Shown here piece by piece: positions 2-12,622 of a DNA stretch of 12,757 bases. The position numbers and the translations under genes were made by a program. The stretch is taken from positions 24,825-37,581 of the forward strand of contig JAXSMZ010000012.1 in assembly GCA_037924335.1 (NCBI GenBank), read 5' to 3'. This stretch comes from Aquificaceae bacterium (GTDB lineage Bacteria; Aquificota; Aquificia; Aquificales; Aquificaceae). The notes beneath the pieces are model-generated. The model was not told where the DNA came from and searched no databases. It saw only the letters and a list, made by a program, of their open reading frames with translations. How positions within the stretch are numbered: position 1 is the stretch's first letter; each line of letters begins with the position of its first letter.

Positions 2-2704
2 TACTTTTACGGTAAAAGGTTTAAATCTGCGGAGCTTAAAAAGTACCATATGGGAGAAGAGTCGGACGACATTATATGGAAGAACGCAGACCTTGCCTTT
101 ATAGAGAAGGGGGCACTCCATATTGTAGATTTCAAGCTTGGAGGGGTAATGAAGTTCCTTAGGGAAATTTTGATAAAAACAGACAATAGAATACCAGTAC
201 CCACTTACGGCATACCCGTTAACCTTTCTCTTGGAGAGCTTGAATTTTATGGCTTTTTGGAAAAGTTTATGCAGGCAAAGGAAAAGTTAAGGGAATCCTT
301 TGATGTTTTTGTGGAAAATAAGGGGCTTTTGCAGACCCTTTGCTATGCGGTGGATTTCCTTTGTTCTGAAAAGGACCCTGTGAGTGAGGTGAGCTTGGAG
401 CTTATATATCCAATGCATGAGCCTTTGAACCTTAGGTTCTTTGTAAAGAATAGGGATAAGCTAAGGGAGTTTTTAAGTGAACTGAAGGAATTATACAGGG
501 ACATAAAACAAAAAGAAAGCCCTTACGGAGAGGCGGATACAGAACGTAGAATTAGAAAAGAAAGGATAAGAAAAGAGACAGAGCAAAGTATAAAGGAACT
601 CCAGAGGGAAATAGAAGAAAGAGAGAAAGAAAGCCTTACACTGGAAACTGGGGATATAAACTCTGCGAGGGACGATGTTAAAAGAAGGCTGGAAGATTTT
701 GTAAAAAGACCAGAGACTTGCAAGGCTATAGCACTTCTTCACTCTGCAGGGAGTGGGAAGACTTCAAGGACAAGGGATATGATACTAAACTTGGAAGGAA
801 AACACATAGTCCTTTATATGGCAACACGTCTAGCCCTTTTAACCAGAGAGCTTGAAAAACTTAAAGAGATAAAAGAAAAATCTCATAAAAGCATAGAGCT
901 GGTTTATGAAAGGGGGCAACAAAGCCAAGGCAAAAAAGCCATAGACAGGGGTACCCACTTTGAGACTATAGAAAACAAGAAGAGGGGCAAGCTAATTGCC
1001 ACAGTGGATGAGGTCCATAAACTCGCACAGGACAAAAAACCAGACATTATATGGGCTTTTACCACTATACAAGCTTTGGTAGAAAAGGCTTCTGGAAAAT
1101 ATACTTCTGAACACTTGAAGCTACTCCAAAGACCAACCTTTAAAGACTATCACATACATATAATCCTTGATGAGTTTTTTGGACACAAAAATGGACTCTT
1201 TGCCATAACGGAGGTGTTTAGGTTTTTGGAAGAGATGAAGGGGATAGGAAGGAAGGCAAGCCTTTACGTCTTTGATGCCAATGGATACTCTCCAAACCTT
1301 TTGGAAAAGCTTATAAAGGAATACGAAGAGTTTGAGGTTATACCAGACTCCTTGGTTTTGAGCCAATATGAGGAAGAGCTAAAAACTCATTATAGATATA
1401 TACCCTTTGAAATCTATGCAAGGCATGGCTTTCCTGCCAATGGGCTTGTGGTTTATAAGAAGTTTATGAAGGTAGAGAGAGAGGAGCAAATTCCTAAGCT
1501 GGTGGCAGATTACATAAAGAGCACTTTAAAAAAAGGAGAAAGTACGGGCTTTGCCTTTATTCAAAACAAGGAGCTTATAGTGAAAGTCTCCGAGGAGCTT
1601 GATAAGGTAGGACTCTCTTCTATGAGAGCTACTGCCAGTTCAAAAAAGAGCCAGGAGCAGATAAACAATGGTACAGAGGATGTGATCTTGGGCACTTCTT
1701 CCGTTTCAAGGGGTCTTGACTTTAGCAGGCCGCACAAGCCAGTGGATTATATATACATAGTGGTTCAAGCCTGGGGCATAGAGAATAACCTTGTAGAAAC
1801 CATACAAGCCCTATCCCGTTCAAGGGGGGATGAGGAGACAGAGAGCAGGCAAAAGCATCTCCATCTGATCTACATAATAGACCAGAATATAGACTATAGA
1901 GTGGAAAACATAGTAAGCTATATGGACCATCCAGATAAGGACCTTGTAAGGCTTATATATACAAAAGAACAGTTGGAAGGCTTTTTAGACCTTGACTCTG
2001 CCATTACAAGAATTGTGGAGCAGTTCCTTTCTAAGCCAAAAGAGAGGGTGCTTGTGCCAGTGCCTACCCAGCATAGAAGCAGGTATATAAACAACGTCAT
2101 ATCAATGTATGAGAATGCTTCCGCCTTTGTGGAAGATATATACCATATGGAGAAGGGAGATGATATCCGCAGTTTTATAAGGCTTCTTGGAAGCACAGCC
2201 TACACATACACAACTCTTAAAAGATTAGAAGATTTACGGAACTTTGACTACTATCATCCTTACATACTCCTTGAAGACCATGAGATATACCTAAAAACAG
2301 ACAATGAGAAAAGGAACCGGCTTAAAAAACTCTTTGAAAAGATAGAACCTGTCTTAGGAGAACACAACAAGGAAAGAACTCAAGACGTAAAAGATTTTTT
2401 GGATAAGGTGTCGCCTATAGAGGAAAACAAGGCGCCATTGCTTATACCTGTATATTCCATAGTTTTTGTGAAAAACTGGTTAAGGGAAAATGGAAAGCTT
2501 GAATTTAGGATAAGTAATAGGGTTGGAAGAGGACATGCGGAAGTTTTAGGGGGAGATTTGGGTCCAAAAACTCTCTGCTACTTGGGTAGCCCTATAGAGT
2601 ATGCCTGCATACCCTTAGGAGAGAACTATCCTTACAAAGAGGTTTTAAGTGGTAGGTTTGCTAAATTCCCTGTAAAATTTATTAAAAGCCTTTTGGAGGG
2701 ATAA
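2..2704 (+). CDS. Nuclease-helicase fusion: N-terminal RecB/Cas4-like PD-(D/E)xK nuclease, charged helical linker and divergent SF2 helicase; probably 5'-truncated by the window edge
   Basis: The frame is open from base 2 (YFYGKRFKSAELKKYH-M) into the ATG at 50, so the true start is probably upstream. Nuclease motifs: AD (86-91), IVDFK (122-136), QTLCYA (332-349). Helicase motifs: Walker A HSAGSGKTS (740-766), Walker B IILDEFF (1160-1180), motif V-like GTSSVSRGLDF (1691-1723), motif VI-like QALSRSRG (1805-1828). Stop TAA at 2702-2704. Confidence 0.8.
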   Translation, partial: YFYGKRFKSAELKKYHMGEESDDIIWKNADLAFIEKGALHIVDFKLGGVMKFLREILIKTDNRIPVPTYGIPVNLSLGELEFYGFLEKFMQAKEKLRESFDVFVENKGLLQTLCYAVDFLCSEKDPVSEVSLELIYPMHEPLNLRFFVKNRDKLREFLSELKELYRDIKQKESPYGEADTERRIRKERIRKETEQSIKELQREIEEREKESLTLETGDINSARDDVKRRLEDFVKRPETCKAIALLHSAGSGKTSRTRDMILNLEGKHIVLYMATRLALLTRELEKLKEIKEKSHKSIELVYERGQQSQGKKAIDRGTHFETIENKKRGKLIATVDEVHKLAQDKKPDIIWAFTTIQALVEKASGKYTSEHLKLLQRPTFKDYHIHIILDEFFGHKNGLFAITEVFRFLEEMKGIGRKASLYVFDANGYSPNLLEKLIKEYEEFEVIPDSLVLSQYEEELKTHYRYIPFEIYARHGFPANGLVVYKKFMKVEREEQIPKLVADYIKSTLKKGESTGFAFIQNKELIVKVSEELDKVGLSSMRATASSKKSQEQINNGTEDVILGTSSVSRGLDFSRPHKPVDYIYIVVQAWGIENNLVETIQALSRSRGDEETESRQKHLHLIYIIDQNIDYRVENIVSYMDHPDKDLVRLIYTKEQLEGFLDLDSAITRIVEQFLSKPKERVLVPVPTQHRSRYINNVISMYENASAFVEDIYHMEKGDDIRSFIRLLGSTAYTYTTLKRLEDLRNFDYYHPYILLEDHEIYLKTDNEKRNRLKKLFEKIEPVLGEHNKERTQDVKDFLDKVSPIEENKAPLLIPVYSIVFVKNWLRENGKLEFRISNRVGRGHAEVLGGDLGPKTLCYLGSPIEYACIPLGENYPYKEVLSGRFAKFPVKFIKSLLEG
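2695..2699 (+). promoter_or_regulatory. Shine-Dalgarno site for the 2707 ORF
   Basis: GGAGG lies 7 nt upstream of ATG 2707, inside the last codons of the helicase gene. Confidence 0.75.
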
Positions 2705-2706
2705 AG

Positions 2707-5034
2707 ATGTATGAAAGCAGGTTTAAGGAAGAGGATGAAAGGCTAAACGCCTTTGCAAAAGGGGAACATTACGGTAGCAACTTCATTTATGCGGGTCTTT
2801 TTTACAATAATGAGCAAGACTACATGCAGAGTATTGCCAACTTGGTTCATAGGCTTGTAAAAAGAAAGGATGTAAGGGCAGAATACAGCAGGTTTCTATC
2901 CGAAGGCAAACCTATAGAAGGACAAGCTCTATATTCCACACAGGAAATTAAGGGATGGATAAAGCCTTGGAGCATATTTAAAAATACACAAACTGCCAGT
3001 TTTTCAAGGTTTGCACCAAACAGCAGGTTTAACATCTACGAACTGAAAACGTTTTCATCTTCTGAGATGGACGATAGGGCTGGGCTTGTCTTTTTGAAGG
3101 TGAGAGGTTACGAAGATGTGGAGTTTGGTAGGGAGATAGAGTGGAAGGCAAAGAAGGACCTGATGGATGAATGGATAAGGCTCACGGACAACCAAAATGT
3201 TAAAAGCTATCTTCAAGAGGTAAGGGAGATATACCGCTTATTGGAAGAGGCACTGCCAGACAGCTATTATAAGCTACCAGCTTCAAGGATTGCCTACTAC
3301 CTTTTCCCTATAGAGCTAAGGTCCTTTGAAGGTATGGTGATTGTTTCAAAGGCAAGCCTTTACAAGAGAAGGGATGAAACAAGGCAGGAGTTCTGGAAGA
3401 AGATATTGGAAGAGTTTGAATCTACAGAAGATAATAAGAGAGCCAAGAAGGACTTGGAATATGTCTTAGAGGAAAAAGGAAAGGAACTAAGCTACCTTGA
3501 GGAGGTTTTAAAGAAGGCTTTGAGCCAAGAGCATTTGAACCTGCTGAGAAGAGATTGGAAGGAGTTCCTAAGAAAGTGTTTGAGGGGGAAAAGCGATAAG
3601 CTTTCTGCCCTTTTTGCTGGAAAGGTGCAAGAGAAAAATCCACCTTGGGTTTCCTTTGGTACCTACTTTGTTCCCAGTGTAGAGCTTGAACTCTTTGTTT
3701 ATGCAGAAAAGGGCTTTGATGTGGATGGTATGAGTGCGGAAGATGTGGTGAAGATAGTAAACAAAGAATTCTCAAAATTTCGCTTTTTGGGAAACGCCAA
3801 GATAAAGTTAAATGAGAAGGTTATGGCTATAGAGGAACTTTTCGGTGGAGGAGACCTATTTAAACTCATAAAGGGGGACAACCTGCAGAATAGCAGGCTA
3901 AAAAGGGAAGATTCTGTAAACCTTACCTATTCTCTATGCTATTTTTCTACAAGAATCTCGAGCCTTATAGCTGAGATAAAGGATGGAAAGCACAAAAACA
4001 AATTTACTGGGATTTTGCTGATTTTGAATACAGAGTTTGAGGAAAGTGAGAGATACGCCCTTTGGGATGTGGTGAGCTTTATATACGACTACTTTGGAGT
4101 CCCTGTTCAGACCCTTACCAAAAGGTCTCTGCGTGTGATAATAAAGGGGAAAGAAAAACAAAGGGAGTCTGTCATCAAAAACATTGCCATAAGCCTATAC
4201 AAAGATTCAAAAGTCCTTGAGATAGGCTTTGATGGTTTCTCTCTTCCCCGTGAAGTAACAGTGTACGCTATAGTTGAAAAGCCATCTCCAAGATTCTTCT
4301 ACAGGTGGGGTGAGCTGAACGGTGGAGCAAGGCATTACCTTTATGAGATTTACAAGATTAGTATACAAGGCAAAAAAGCCCAGATAGGGCTTGAAAACAA
4401 GTTTTTTGAATTGCAGGGCATGAGAGAGTTGGGTATAGAAAGATGGATAGAGGAAAAGAAGAGCTATCAGAATACCAAATTTTGCTTTATAACAGCTTCA
4501 AAAGAATCCAAGTTAGTGGAGCTATACAGCAAGTTTTCTACACCAAAAGAGGAGCATAAGTTTTTGCTAATAAGGTACGATGAGCTAAAGACTGCCTACT
4601 TTTCTGAGAAAACAGAACAGCACTGCTTTATAGTCTACACGCAGGAGATGAGGAAGCTCATGGAAAGACTGGCTATTGCGATGGAAAGGGATATGGCAGC
4701 CATTGCCCTAAAGCCAGCCCACGCTAAATCCATAGAAGACGAGATGTACCATCCTTCCTTACAGCTTTTCTTTACAGAAAGGGTAGGATGGGAAAGGGAT
4801 GATGTGTACTCCGAGAGAAAGAACCTATTTATCTTTACAGTGCTTGCCCTTTCCATGTACGAGAGCGAGTCTTTTATAACACCCTTTAGTAAGCTGAGCA
4901 TATGGTCAAAGGAAAGGAACTACTACCTTACTGTAAAGAGGAAAGATATGGACTACAGGTTTCCCCTAAAGCCAGTCCTTTATGAAATGCTGATGTTTAC
5001 TCAAGAAAGACCAGGAATAGGAGGTATAGAATGA
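2707..5034 (+). CDS. 775-aa hypothetical protein; putative divergent Argonaute/PIWI-like (MID-PIWI) protein, probably catalytically inactive
   Basis: The CDS itself is secure (long ORF with SD). MID-like segment GILLIL...[19 protein letters not shown]...[11 protein letters not shown] (about 4009-4203) resembles the Ago pattern 'gipsQ...NialqinaK'. The C-terminal YHPSLQLFF...[12 protein letters not shown]...ITP resembles the end of a PIWI domain. Size matches long pAgos. No convincing DEDX tetrad. The function is inferred. Confidence 0.55.
5019..5025 (+). promoter_or_regulatory. Shine-Dalgarno site for ppa
   Basis: AGGAGGT lies 5 nt upstream of ATG 5031, within the 3' end of the preceding ORF. 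Confidence 0.8.
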
Positions 5035-10738: not shown

Positions 10739-12622
10739 ATGGACGGTGAGAGCCTCTTAGAGAGTTTAATAGAGGTCGCTTCTCTGGCAGAGAGGGAACT
10801 AAAGGTAGCCTCCGCTTGGATAAAGGGGGATGTTTTAGAAAGAGTTCTGGAAAAACTCAAAAGAAATGTTCAGGTAGAAGTGATCCTAAAGGCTGGTGAG
10901 AGAGAGGATATGAATATAACGGACATAAGGGTTTTCAGGGCTGTCAGAAAAAAAGGGGGAAGGGTTTACGTAAACCCAAGGCTTCATGCAAAGTTCCTTC
11001 TTGTGGATGATAGAATAGCCTTTGTTGGTTCTGCAAACCTCACTTATTCAGGAACTCAGACAGAGTTTGGAAACTTTGAGGCCGTCGTCAAGTTAGAGGA
11101 GGGAGAGTACGTAAAGGAGCTTATAAAAAAGTACGAGGAGCTAAAAAGAGAATCGGAGGAGATATTTCCGGATACCGTTGCAGTAGTTCTCTCCTTTGAG
11201 AATTCCCTCACCTTTAGGTCTCTGCTCCTTGAAGATGTGCCAGAGCAATCTTTTTTGAAGGTACAAAGCAATAGGGGGATAATGCTTTGTAAACTAATCA
11301 GCGTAGAATCTTACACCTTTGATGAATCTCAACTGATGGGAAAGGATAAGGATAAGGATTGGCTTGTAGCTTTTTTGAAAGCTTATTTTAACGAGACTGG
11401 AAATGTAAAGCTTGGGAGGGTAAGGGTTCTGTGTGAATACAGAAAGATAAGGGCTGAAGAGAAGGAAAGCTATTTTGGCGTACCGCTTTTGCCTCTGGCC
11501 GTTGGAACACAGCTTTTCCTGACTGACCAGTCTGACCCAGACATGCAAGCTGTTATGGGTATGAACATGTCTGGATATCCCATGGACAAGAAGGTTTACA
11601 TAGGAAAGCTTTTAAACACCAATGTGGATGTTTACTTGGACCTATCCAAGGTCTCAAGCATGCATATGGCTGTTATGGGCACAACGGGCGCTGGAAAGAC
11701 CACATTTGTAAGAAGACTTATAGAAAACTTAGGCAAAAACTACGTGAAGGTTTATGTTATGGATGTTTTTGGAGAATACTACGAGAAGCTTTCCATAGAA
11801 AGGGAAAGAATGGAGCATATAAAGCTCCCCTACACTTTATTTCCTGTACACGTGGATGACGTAAAAGAACTTTTTAAAGCTTACGGTGTTGGAATTCAGG
11901 AGAAGTCTTTGGAAGAAAAGAACTTCTTTGCAAACATCAGAAGGGTTCTGAAGCCAGACATTGAGACAATAGCATACAGAGACAAGAACTTTGAGGAGAT
12001 ACTCCTAACATCCTCAACCTCTCCCCGCATAGAAGAGGAGCTTGAGGATTTTTTAAGGATACTAAAGAGGGATTTTGGGGACATGTCGGTAAACAACCAA
12101 AGGGAAATTTACAGGCTTATCAAAATGGGGCTCAGTTCCGAAAAGGATATGGTAATTTATGACCTTAAGGATGTGCTCAACGTTGAAGCTAGGATAAATA
12201 TAGTAGGACTCGTCATGAAGGAGATATTCATAGCTTCAAGGCTCGACGGTAAGGGTAGACTCATTGCATTAGAGGAAGCTCACAACTTTGCTCCAGAGAG
12301 GGGAGCCTTAGAAATACCCTTTGGGAGAGAAAACATAGCCTATACGATGACTAGGAGGATAGCCTTAGAGGGCAGAAAGTTTGGTGTTGGTCTTATAGCC
12401 ATAACACAGAGACCGGCCAACATAAGCAAGTACATACTATCACAGATGAACACGCAAGCTATATTTAGGCTCATAACCAAGAACGACTTGGATGCCGTTT
12501 CCGTCTTCTTTGAAGAGTCAAACATGGAACTTTTGAACATATTACCATCCCTCAGGCCTGGTATACTTTTCCTGAACGGGCTTGCAGTACCCTTTGGCAT
12601 GCTTGTAAGCATAGAGCTTTAA
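10739..12622 (+). CDS. PLD (HKD) nuclease domain fused to a HerA/DUF87-type ATPase
   Basis: HAKFLLVD (10985-11008) plus GSAN (11027-11038) form a single HKD motif. HerA motifs: HMAVMGTTGAGKT (Walker A 11678-11701), DVFGEY, LEEAHNFAP (EEAH 12272-12283), EGRKFG (12368-12385), TQRP. Confidence 0.88.
   Translation: MDGESLLESLIEVASLAERELKVASAWIKGDVLERVLEKLKRNVQVEVILKAGEREDMNITDIRVFRAVRKKGGRVYVNPRLHAKFLLVDDRIAFVGSANLTYSGTQTEFGNFEAVVKLEEGEYVKELIKKYEELKRESEEIFPDTVAVVLSFENSLTFRSLLLEDVPEQSFLKVQSNRGIMLCKLISVESYTFDESQLMGKDKDKDWLVAFLKAYFNETGNVKLGRVRVLCEYRKIRAEEKESYFGVPLLPLAVGTQLFLTDQSDPDMQAVMGMNMSGYPMDKKVYIGKLLNTNVDVYLDLSKVSSMHMAVMGTTGAGKTTFVRRLIENLGKNYVKVYVMDVFGEYYEKLSIERERMEHIKLPYTLFPVHVDDVKELFKAYGVGIQEKSLEEKNFFANIRRVLKPDIETIAYRDKNFEEILLTSSTSPRIEEELEDFLRILKRDFGDMSVNNQREIYRLIKMGLSSEKDMVIYDLKDVLNVEARINIVGLVMKEIFIASRLDGKGRLIALEEAHNFAPERGALEIPFGRENIAYTMTRRIALEGRKFGVGLIAITQRPANISKYILSQMNTQAIFRLITKNDLDAVSVFFEESNMELLNILPSLRPGILFLNGLAVPFGMLVSIEL

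Follow-up and report, generated by a model that had tools for sequence, protein, structure and literature searches.

ORF2 of the window, by which we mean the whole 12,757-nt stretch of Aquificaceae DNA analysed here, encodes a protein of 775 residues (nucleotides 2707–5034, plus strand) that is, according to an AlphaFold model and fold searches, a divergent long Argonaute-fold protein, predicted to be non-slicing. The predicted structure confirms the fold of the Argonaute/PIWI superfamily, composed of a Rossmann-like MID domain followed by an RNase H-like PIWI domain with a beta-sheet extension. The preceding gene, ORF1 (2–2704, plus strand), is predicted to encode an N-terminal PD-(D/E)xK nuclease fused to an SF2 helicase. 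We consider it fairly probable that ORF2 serves as the guide-loaded sensor, and ORF1 as the DNA-unwinding and -cutting engine, of a defence system resembling DdmDE.

The AlphaFold2 model of ORF2, built from 18 sequences, has a pLDDT of 79 and a pTM of 0.82. Its best Foldseek match in the PDB is Aquifex aeolicus Argonaute (E 5e-8), and the best 50 of the 190 matches at E<=1e-3 are all of Argonaute/PIWI type, the Mediator kinase-module entry 7kpv included. The Foldseek TM-scores are low (0.23–0.31 over the query). VIA realignment gave Z scores of 9.7–11.0 and rmsd values of 4.2–5.3 Å over 314–365 aligned residues, all 50 rows being Ago/PIWI proteins. In a Foldseek-independent search of 48,161 chains, 23 Ago/PIWI chains rank first (Z 10.8–7.7), followed by Pelota, YqgF and actin-like RNase H folds, which align with residues 513–624/718. 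The fold-alignment ranges show that residues 301–764 correspond to a whole short pAgo, that the MID domain of hAgo2 (7c6b, 441–574) aligns with residues 319–504, and that the RNase H core begins at residues 513–518.

An earlier note, made from the sequence, had read the C-terminal half of ORF2 as a MID–PIWI module. Structure prediction and three fold searches bear out this reading, including the RNase H-like fold, for which the note had suggested a structural model as a check. All 13 motifs it quoted are found in ORF2 where it placed them, among them GILLIL (aa 435–440, 4009–4026), Q468 (4108), N492 (4180), K499 (4201), IGFD (aa 506–509, 4222–4233), KFCFITAS (4477–4500) and the last helix motif (4825–4860), and its order of strands and helices agrees with the model. 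The agreement exceeds chance, and the boundaries proposed for the module (4009–4900) were too narrow: MID starts at ~aa 320 (nt ~3664) and PIWI extends to ~aa 767 (nt 5007). Because the fold-alignment ranges define its parts, we place the module at nucleotides ~3607–5007.

The kinship of ORF2 with Argonautes is visible by fold only, because profile–profile comparison is not significant. With hhalign, the ORF2 profile matched none of 14 ordinary pAgos significantly, either at full length or over the C-terminal halves (best P=0.07), and the Pfam Piwi and pPIWI_RE models (MID, RNase H, X) match 0 of 28 family members at E<=0.5; the profile search that had also been suggested therefore yielded no significant match to these models or pAgos. 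Scans of ORF2 against Pfam, NCBIfam and PADLOC gave no meaningful family match, and sequence searches of the PDB found nothing. Sequence identity to long-A slicer pAgos is 7–13%. The low TM-scores and the non-significant profile comparison count against our reading of ORF2.

A word-index search with ORF2 returned 18 proteins, query counted, and an HMM search through all 1.84 billion representatives returned 47, down to E 1e-4. An alignment of 28 family members was made, and residue conservation was counted over 46 sequences. The source names of the relatives are 'hypothetical protein', except for a 40-aa fragment in one cluster. ORF2 is under purifying selection, with dN/dS values in five close pairs of ~0.10–0.18 for the whole protein and 0.06–0.18 from aa 430 onwards; two distant pairs are at or near saturation in this comparison. 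No description of the family was found in the literature covered, outside which lie subscription journals and bioRxiv supplements; the ApsAB homologue tables (PMC11096173 Data 7, 8) could list members. Deleted or frameshifted copies occur among the relatives, and in L013, L014, L015 and L044 ORF2 is split by frameshifts or stops, reflecting either decay or assembly error.

The N-terminal lobe (aa 1–300, 2707–3606, plus strand), as delineated by DSSP of the AlphaFold model, consists of a low-confidence extension (1–95), strands at 97–132 and 202–216, and helical blocks at 142–199 and 223–292. In the fold alignments, residues 109–128 correspond to the strand with which long Agos begin. The DSSP string of the full-length model is mostly helical over aa 1–300 and contains no beta-rich PAZ or PAZ-like barrel there. 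In the extension (2707–2991 of the window), F16 and G30 are kept in more than 90% of homologues despite the low model confidence, and this part may fold upon partner binding. Next comes the L2 plus MID domain (aa 301–504, 3607–4218, plus strand), which harbors a remodelled 5'-end pocket as judged by fold alignment and conservation. A linker strand (aa 503–509), which includes IGFD (4222–4233, plus strand) in the model and the fold alignment, leads to the PIWI/RNase H-like domain (aa 516–767, 4252–5007, plus strand), assigned by the model and the fold searches. The PIWI domain includes the beta-sheet extension (639–691), which retains K669, H682 and Q686, and a C-terminal hairpin plus helix (740–765). 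Its elements are continuous across 516–767 in the model, with no ~100-aa insert of the kind called the INS domain.

ORF2 likely lacks the DEDX tetrad, and with it the slicing activity. The catalytic registers were read from the ends of alignment ranges, without coordinates, and assume no gap over the adjoining 7–8 residues. The YqgF chains 1nmn (516=2), 1iv0 (517=1) and 7w89 (515=14) put the first catalytic Asp on residue 523, as does chain 1vhx if its numbering is what we assume it to be. This position is occupied by V523, which is followed by E524 (4273–4278, plus strand), so that the true first catalytic strand is VTVYAIVE. Residue 523 is acidic in none of the 46 sequences; it aligns as Glu in two distant members. 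IGFD, which the earlier note had hesitated to accept as the first catalytic motif, is rightly doubted: it belongs to the linker strand preceding the first catalytic strand, which rules it out; its D509 is kept in 21 of the 46 sequences and replaced by E in 17. The position of the RDG Asp is occupied by A597 (4495–4497, plus strand), where again none of the 46 sequences has an acid; we place it by the strand order in the model, in which a strand at 590–596 immediately precedes A597. No invariant Glu suitable as the Glu finger is present at 570–578, the best candidate being residue 573, which is D/E in 33 of 46 sequences and R in ORF2.

The fourth tetrad residue would fall within aa 731–737 (4897–4917, plus strand), a region of low model confidence. 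The CbAgo range (738=734) puts D727 on residue 731, and the range end for MpAgo, of which we take N624 to be the fourth tetrad position, points to 731–732, while those for CtAgo and KmAgo point to 735–737. Residue 731 is S in ORF2 and D/E in 25 of 46 sequences, and no acid is conserved across 731–737. At the best registers no tetrad position is filled, and slicing has therefore likely been lost, in line with the note's call of a slicer-less module bearing ITAS on the strand that usually carries RDG. The inactivity of ORF2 is nevertheless something we infer, because the invariant E524 (46/46) lies one residue from the first catalytic position. E524 most likely plays a structural part on the far side of the sheet, and as a first catalytic residue it was set aside on the YqgF register. 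E760 was also considered as the fourth catalytic residue (P753+7 spacing) and is not favoured by the range ends.

Judged from the sequences, the MID domain retains a conserved 5'-end pocket (aromatic, Q, K) in which the first Lys is replaced by S/R/N. The pocket residues are Y450, W453, S/R/N457, Q468, K491, N492, S496, K499 and K502. Among them, Y450, Q468, K491, N492 and S496 are invariant over the 46 sequences, all of which have K or R at positions 499 and 502, and W453 is present in 39 of 40 homologues. Residue 457 is mostly S, R or N (21, 16 and 7 of 46), and the first pocket Lys is therefore lost in the close clade. The best local hhalign (P=0.07) pairs W453, S457 and Q468 with Y439, K443 and Q454 of AaAgo, the AaAgo sequence used (the L016 protein) being identical to PDB 1yvu. 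The register of the last pocket Lys (K499) is certain to ±1, and without gaps the counterpart of hAgo2 K570 is D500. The MID domain holds 16 columns conserved at 90% or more, and most invariant residues of ORF2 cluster at the 5'-end pocket.

R745 and E760 (4939–4986, plus strand), located in the C-terminal hairpin and helix, are invariant in the homologues (E760 in 46/46). The last helix (754–767) is matched to the C-terminal tail in AaAgo (696 of 706), TtAgo (676 of 685) and hAgo2 (850). This tail carries the terminal carboxylate of Argonautes into the guide pocket, and the C-terminus of the ORF2 family does not end in a conserved carboxylate. E760 may replace that carboxylate in the guide pocket of ORF2, by analogy with DdmE, which uses Lys674 and Glu678 in its 5'-phosphate pocket according to two preprints (bioRxiv 10.1101/2024.05.10.593530, 10.1101/2024.10.09.617351).

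The remodelled MID–PIWI could instead work guide-free, sensing DNA ends or forks and thereby activating ORF1, which would be a structure-triggered or an abortive nuclease. We regard this as improbable. The loss of the first pocket Lys in most close homologues, the coincidence of hAgo2 K570 with D500, the missing PAZ-like barrel in the model and the free C-terminus would all suit such a protein, but most of its invariant residues lie in the very pocket that would hold a guide 5' end, and altered pockets and the lack of a canonical PAZ are shared by DdmE and ApsB, of which DdmE has been shown to use guides.

ORF1 encodes 1011 residues and begins ~330 nt before the window; its assignment is based on motifs and on the model of a homologue. 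Its N-terminal PD-(D/E)xK-type motifs comprise D at nucleotide 89, DxK at 128–136 and QxxxY at 332–346, and its SF2 helicase motifs comprise the Walker A Lys at 758, DE at 1169 and motif VI at 1805–1825. Both sets are invariant in 45–52 homologues. PADLOC reports a weak Cas4-like match (E 0.008). In the model of a 71%-identical homologue (pLDDT 85.5), the nuclease motifs lie at aa 141–228 and the SF2 fold at 336–800, where generic SF2 helicases match with Z up to 18. The nuclease domain is predicted from its motifs; the match lists were taken up by helicases, which left it without a separate fold match. The helicase is not of DinG type, since its core lacks a conserved cysteine cluster, no Cys column exceeding 60%.

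The two genes are tightly associated. The stop of ORF1 lies 2 nt before the start of ORF2, and the gaps at 16 loci range from -20 to +9 nt. ORF2 is present in 41 and ORF1 in 43 of 178 genomes of the phylum; both occur in 37, and they are adjacent in every one of these, with the helicase first in 36 and the order reversed in one. The gene trees are congruent and the pairwise identities correlate with r=0.99 (16 pairs), which demonstrates joint inheritance, not binding. Modelling ORF2 in complex with the last 219 residues of ORF1, for that part of ORF1 only, gave no answer either way (score 0.00). Among the four genomes with ORF2 only, two have it at contig edges, one has a deleted remnant and one a weak 64-aa match. 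Locus L071 (6248–7135) holds a 295-aa internally deleted ORF2 remnant without a helicase, beside a PLD-SNF2 gene. Five of the six genomes with ORF1 only were examined. In two, an adjacent ORF of 754–790 aa aligns end to end with ORF2, not significantly (P 0.02, 0.11); another has a 1087-aa ORF 2.6 kb away with similar C-terminal motifs (P 0.08); and two have no partner in the stretch retrieved around the gene.

In the defence system that we favour, ORF2 would bind a short 5'-phosphorylated guide, probably DNA, whose 5' end would be held by W453/Y450, Q468, K491/N492/S496/K499 and possibly E760. The guide-loaded protein would pair with invading DNA, from a plasmid or virus, without cutting it. 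By analogy with DdmDE, target-bound ORF2 would then load ORF1, which would unwind the DNA through its ATP-driven SF2 motor and cut it with the N-terminal PD-(D/E)xK domain. This proposal is based on the predicted fold, the conserved pocket, the missing DEDX, purifying selection and the strict pairing with ORF1. The loss of the first pocket Lys, which is S in ORF2, and the lack of a conserved terminal carboxylate speak against it.

The distribution of the pair bears on this proposal in both directions. ORF2 occurs in 8 of 34 genera of the phylum and was not found in most, and in three genera it is present in 7/7, 19/25 and 8/11 genomes. Further copies are found in WOR-3, Thermodesulfobacteriaceae, Bacteroidia and several archaea, including a Sulfolobales archaeon, whose archaeal class yielded 1 clear match in 301 genomes. 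In the window the pair is flanked by lepA and ppa, each of which it overlaps; the flanking genes vary between loci. An empty site was not found, lepA and ppa not being neighbours in genus relatives. No ORF2 relative was found in IMG/VR, PLSDB or INPHARED. We scanned 67 of the 81 nearest neighbours and 3 hand-picked genes at 21 loci for defence functions, the 14 left out coming from near-duplicate loci. Clear defence neighbours (type IIG R-M, type III-A CRISPR, PLD-SNF2) were found at 5 of the 21 loci, a count without background control; three further loci have weaker ones, and 16 of 21 have no clear ones. At locus L012 (12379–18853), a type III-A CRISPR operon begins 8 nt past the ORF2 homologue, with cas10, csm2 and further genes. 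The apparent mobility of the pair, with scattered copies in WOR-3, Thermodesulfobacteriaceae and Sulfolobales, differing flanks and broken copies, counts for defence, as do the clear defence neighbours at 5 of the 21 loci. The 16 loci without a clear defence neighbour count against it, as does the near-core retention in three genera, steadier than that of most defence systems.

Such retention would be expected if the main task of the pair were to maintain the chromosome at high temperature, by completing replication or by resolving forks or catenanes, with guides derived from cellular DNA and defence being secondary. This explanation appears unlikely to us. The housekeeping neighbours lepA and ppa at the present locus are consistent with it, as are the rarity of genomes with both ORF2 and an ordinary pAgo (2 of 90 family genomes versus 5.8 expected; Fisher p=0.03, kin not being independent) and the ciprofloxacin sensitivity of a PIWI-RE knockout described in PMC10991935. 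However, the pair was not found in 26 of the 34 genera, is sporadic in archaea, occurs in broken and deleted copies, and in some cases lies beside R-M and CRISPR genes. It is very doubtful that ORF2 is itself a nuclease with a site rebuilt from invariant residues (E524, H543, E760, E721, R745): E524 and E760 are indeed invariant in 46/46, E524 adjoins the first catalytic position, H543 is conserved in at least 90% of homologues and residue 731 is acidic in 25/46. Against this, four YqgF structures put the Asp on 523, which should turn E524 towards the opposite side; none of the sequences has an acid at 597; in most rows the last helix is matched to the C-terminal tail of Ago; and a nuclease partner is always supplied.

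The proposed defence system can be compared with known ones, and the pair likely works in a manner analogous to DdmDE and ApsAB. DdmDE (Vibrio cholerae, Lactobacillus casei), whose DdmE is a long-C pAgo, likewise combines an inactive long Argonaute without DEDX or canonical PAZ with an SF2 helicase/PD-(D/E)xK fusion, and Glu678 of DdmE lies near the C-terminus in the 5'-phosphate pocket, as E760 may. In the two preprints cited above, the inactive DdmE uses 5'-phosphorylated DNA guides to load DdmD. The nuclease, however, is C-terminal in DdmD and N-terminal in ORF1, and the PIWI domain of LcDdmE is described as carrying an INS domain (510–616) that ORF2 lacks. ORF2 also differs in its ~300-aa largely helical N-lobe and C-terminal hairpin, and the hosts of the pair are hot-spring thermophiles. 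The reversed domain order and the missing INS domain rule out membership in DdmDE. DdmD and DdmE gave no sequence match in PADLOC and are absent among the fold matches listed, their presence in these libraries being unconfirmed.

As described in PMC11096173, the anti-plasmid system ApsAB of E. coli ST38 likewise consists of a nuclease/helicase gene followed by an HMM-invisible Argonaute-like gene with a MID-type motif, which ApsB needs. According to the same text, ApsA exceeds 1400 aa and has a C-terminal nuclease, whereas ORF1 has 1011 aa and an N-terminal one; the ApsB motif is Y-x3-K...QG...K, whereas that of ORF2 is W-x3-S/R/N...QT...K; and ApsB is reported to lack an RNase H fold, which ORF2 keeps. 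The motif and the nuclease position rule out membership in ApsAB.

The pPIWI-RE triad (REase, DinG helicase, pPIWI-RE) shares the order of nuclease, helicase and PIWI protein in a tight operon, a mostly non-catalytic PIWI and an unusual N-terminal region, as described in PMC3702460. In ESM Atlas a pPIWI-RE cluster appears in one row at 0.94, a lead only, since recognition of ORF2 was low (1514). Nuclease and helicase are fused in ORF1, with a helicase not of DinG type, whereas the triad has a separate REase and a DinG helicase with an iron-binding cysteine region. In addition, 0 of 28 ORF2 members match the pPIWI_RE Pfam models. The invariant R and E of pPIWI-RE lie in its beta-sheet extension, whereas R745 and E760 lie in the C-terminal tail, a comparison made without pPIWI-RE sequences. 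Membership is ruled out by the fusion, the non-DinG helicase and the lack of an HMM match. A search of 301 genomes for pPIWI-RE sequences returned none; as the controls returned none either, it carries no information. The long-A slicer pAgos (AaAgo, TtAgo, CbAgo, CpAgo) provide the best fold matches and are likewise of full length, and their MID Q and K are kept in ORF2. The latter differs from them in lacking DEDX, in showing no PAZ barrel and in having a fixed nuclease–helicase partner.

A broader interpretation, offered tentatively, is that ORF2 represents an undescribed, profile-invisible Argonaute clade in which guide-directed recruitment of a helicase–nuclease evolved independently of DdmDE, with a nuclease-first engine, a rebuilt pocket that E760/R745 close, and possibly a non-canonical chemistry involving E524/H543. 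Near-core in Aquificaceae, it may stand in for pAgo there, and it may reach Cyanobacteria via helicases of 1160–1310 aa with partners of ~1090 aa; the pair would then be a thermostable, programmable DNA shredder. ORF2 shows that entire Argonaute lineages still go unseen by Pfam, NCBIfam and PADLOC, and it occurs in about twice as many genomes of the phylum as recognisable pAgo (41 versus 21 of 178). Beside DdmDE, ApsAB and pPIWI-RE, the pair would be a fourth architecture coupling an inactive Argonaute to a helicase–nuclease, which bears on how often this design arose. If the proposed mechanism is true, it offers a two-protein, heat-stable, programmable tool for DNA unwinding and cutting, and the pair is a possible barrier to DNA uptake in the phylum, for which a 2026 paper states that no transformation has been reported (PMC13402655).

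The DNA of the window was detected in hot-spring metagenome runs, seven of which, from two studies, hold at least 90% of its words (five are possibly its source), and no RNA run is among the runs listed as holding it. The stretch is intact in other hot-spring assemblies. A promoter/terminator scan was at chance level. A 627-aa fusion of a phospholipase D (HKD) nuclease and a HerA ATPase is encoded at 10739–12622 of the window, 5.7 kb downstream among housekeeping genes, and no link was seen between it and the ORF1–ORF2 cassette.

Genome G146 encodes a 1161-aa ORF1-related nuclease–helicase (L068 5413–8898, minus strand), oriented divergently to and located 2.6 kb from an orphan ORF of 1087 aa (L073 1530–4793, plus strand) that carries MID–PIWI-like C-terminal motifs. 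This helicase has relatives of 1190–1310 aa, the named ones being mostly cyanobacterial, and it possibly belongs, together with the orphan ORF, to a wider family. Very distant versions of the pair, with ~20% identity, are found in L066 (5696–10820), L067 (3220–8244) and L056 (3022–8766), and in L067 and L056 the Argonaute-like gene precedes the helicase.
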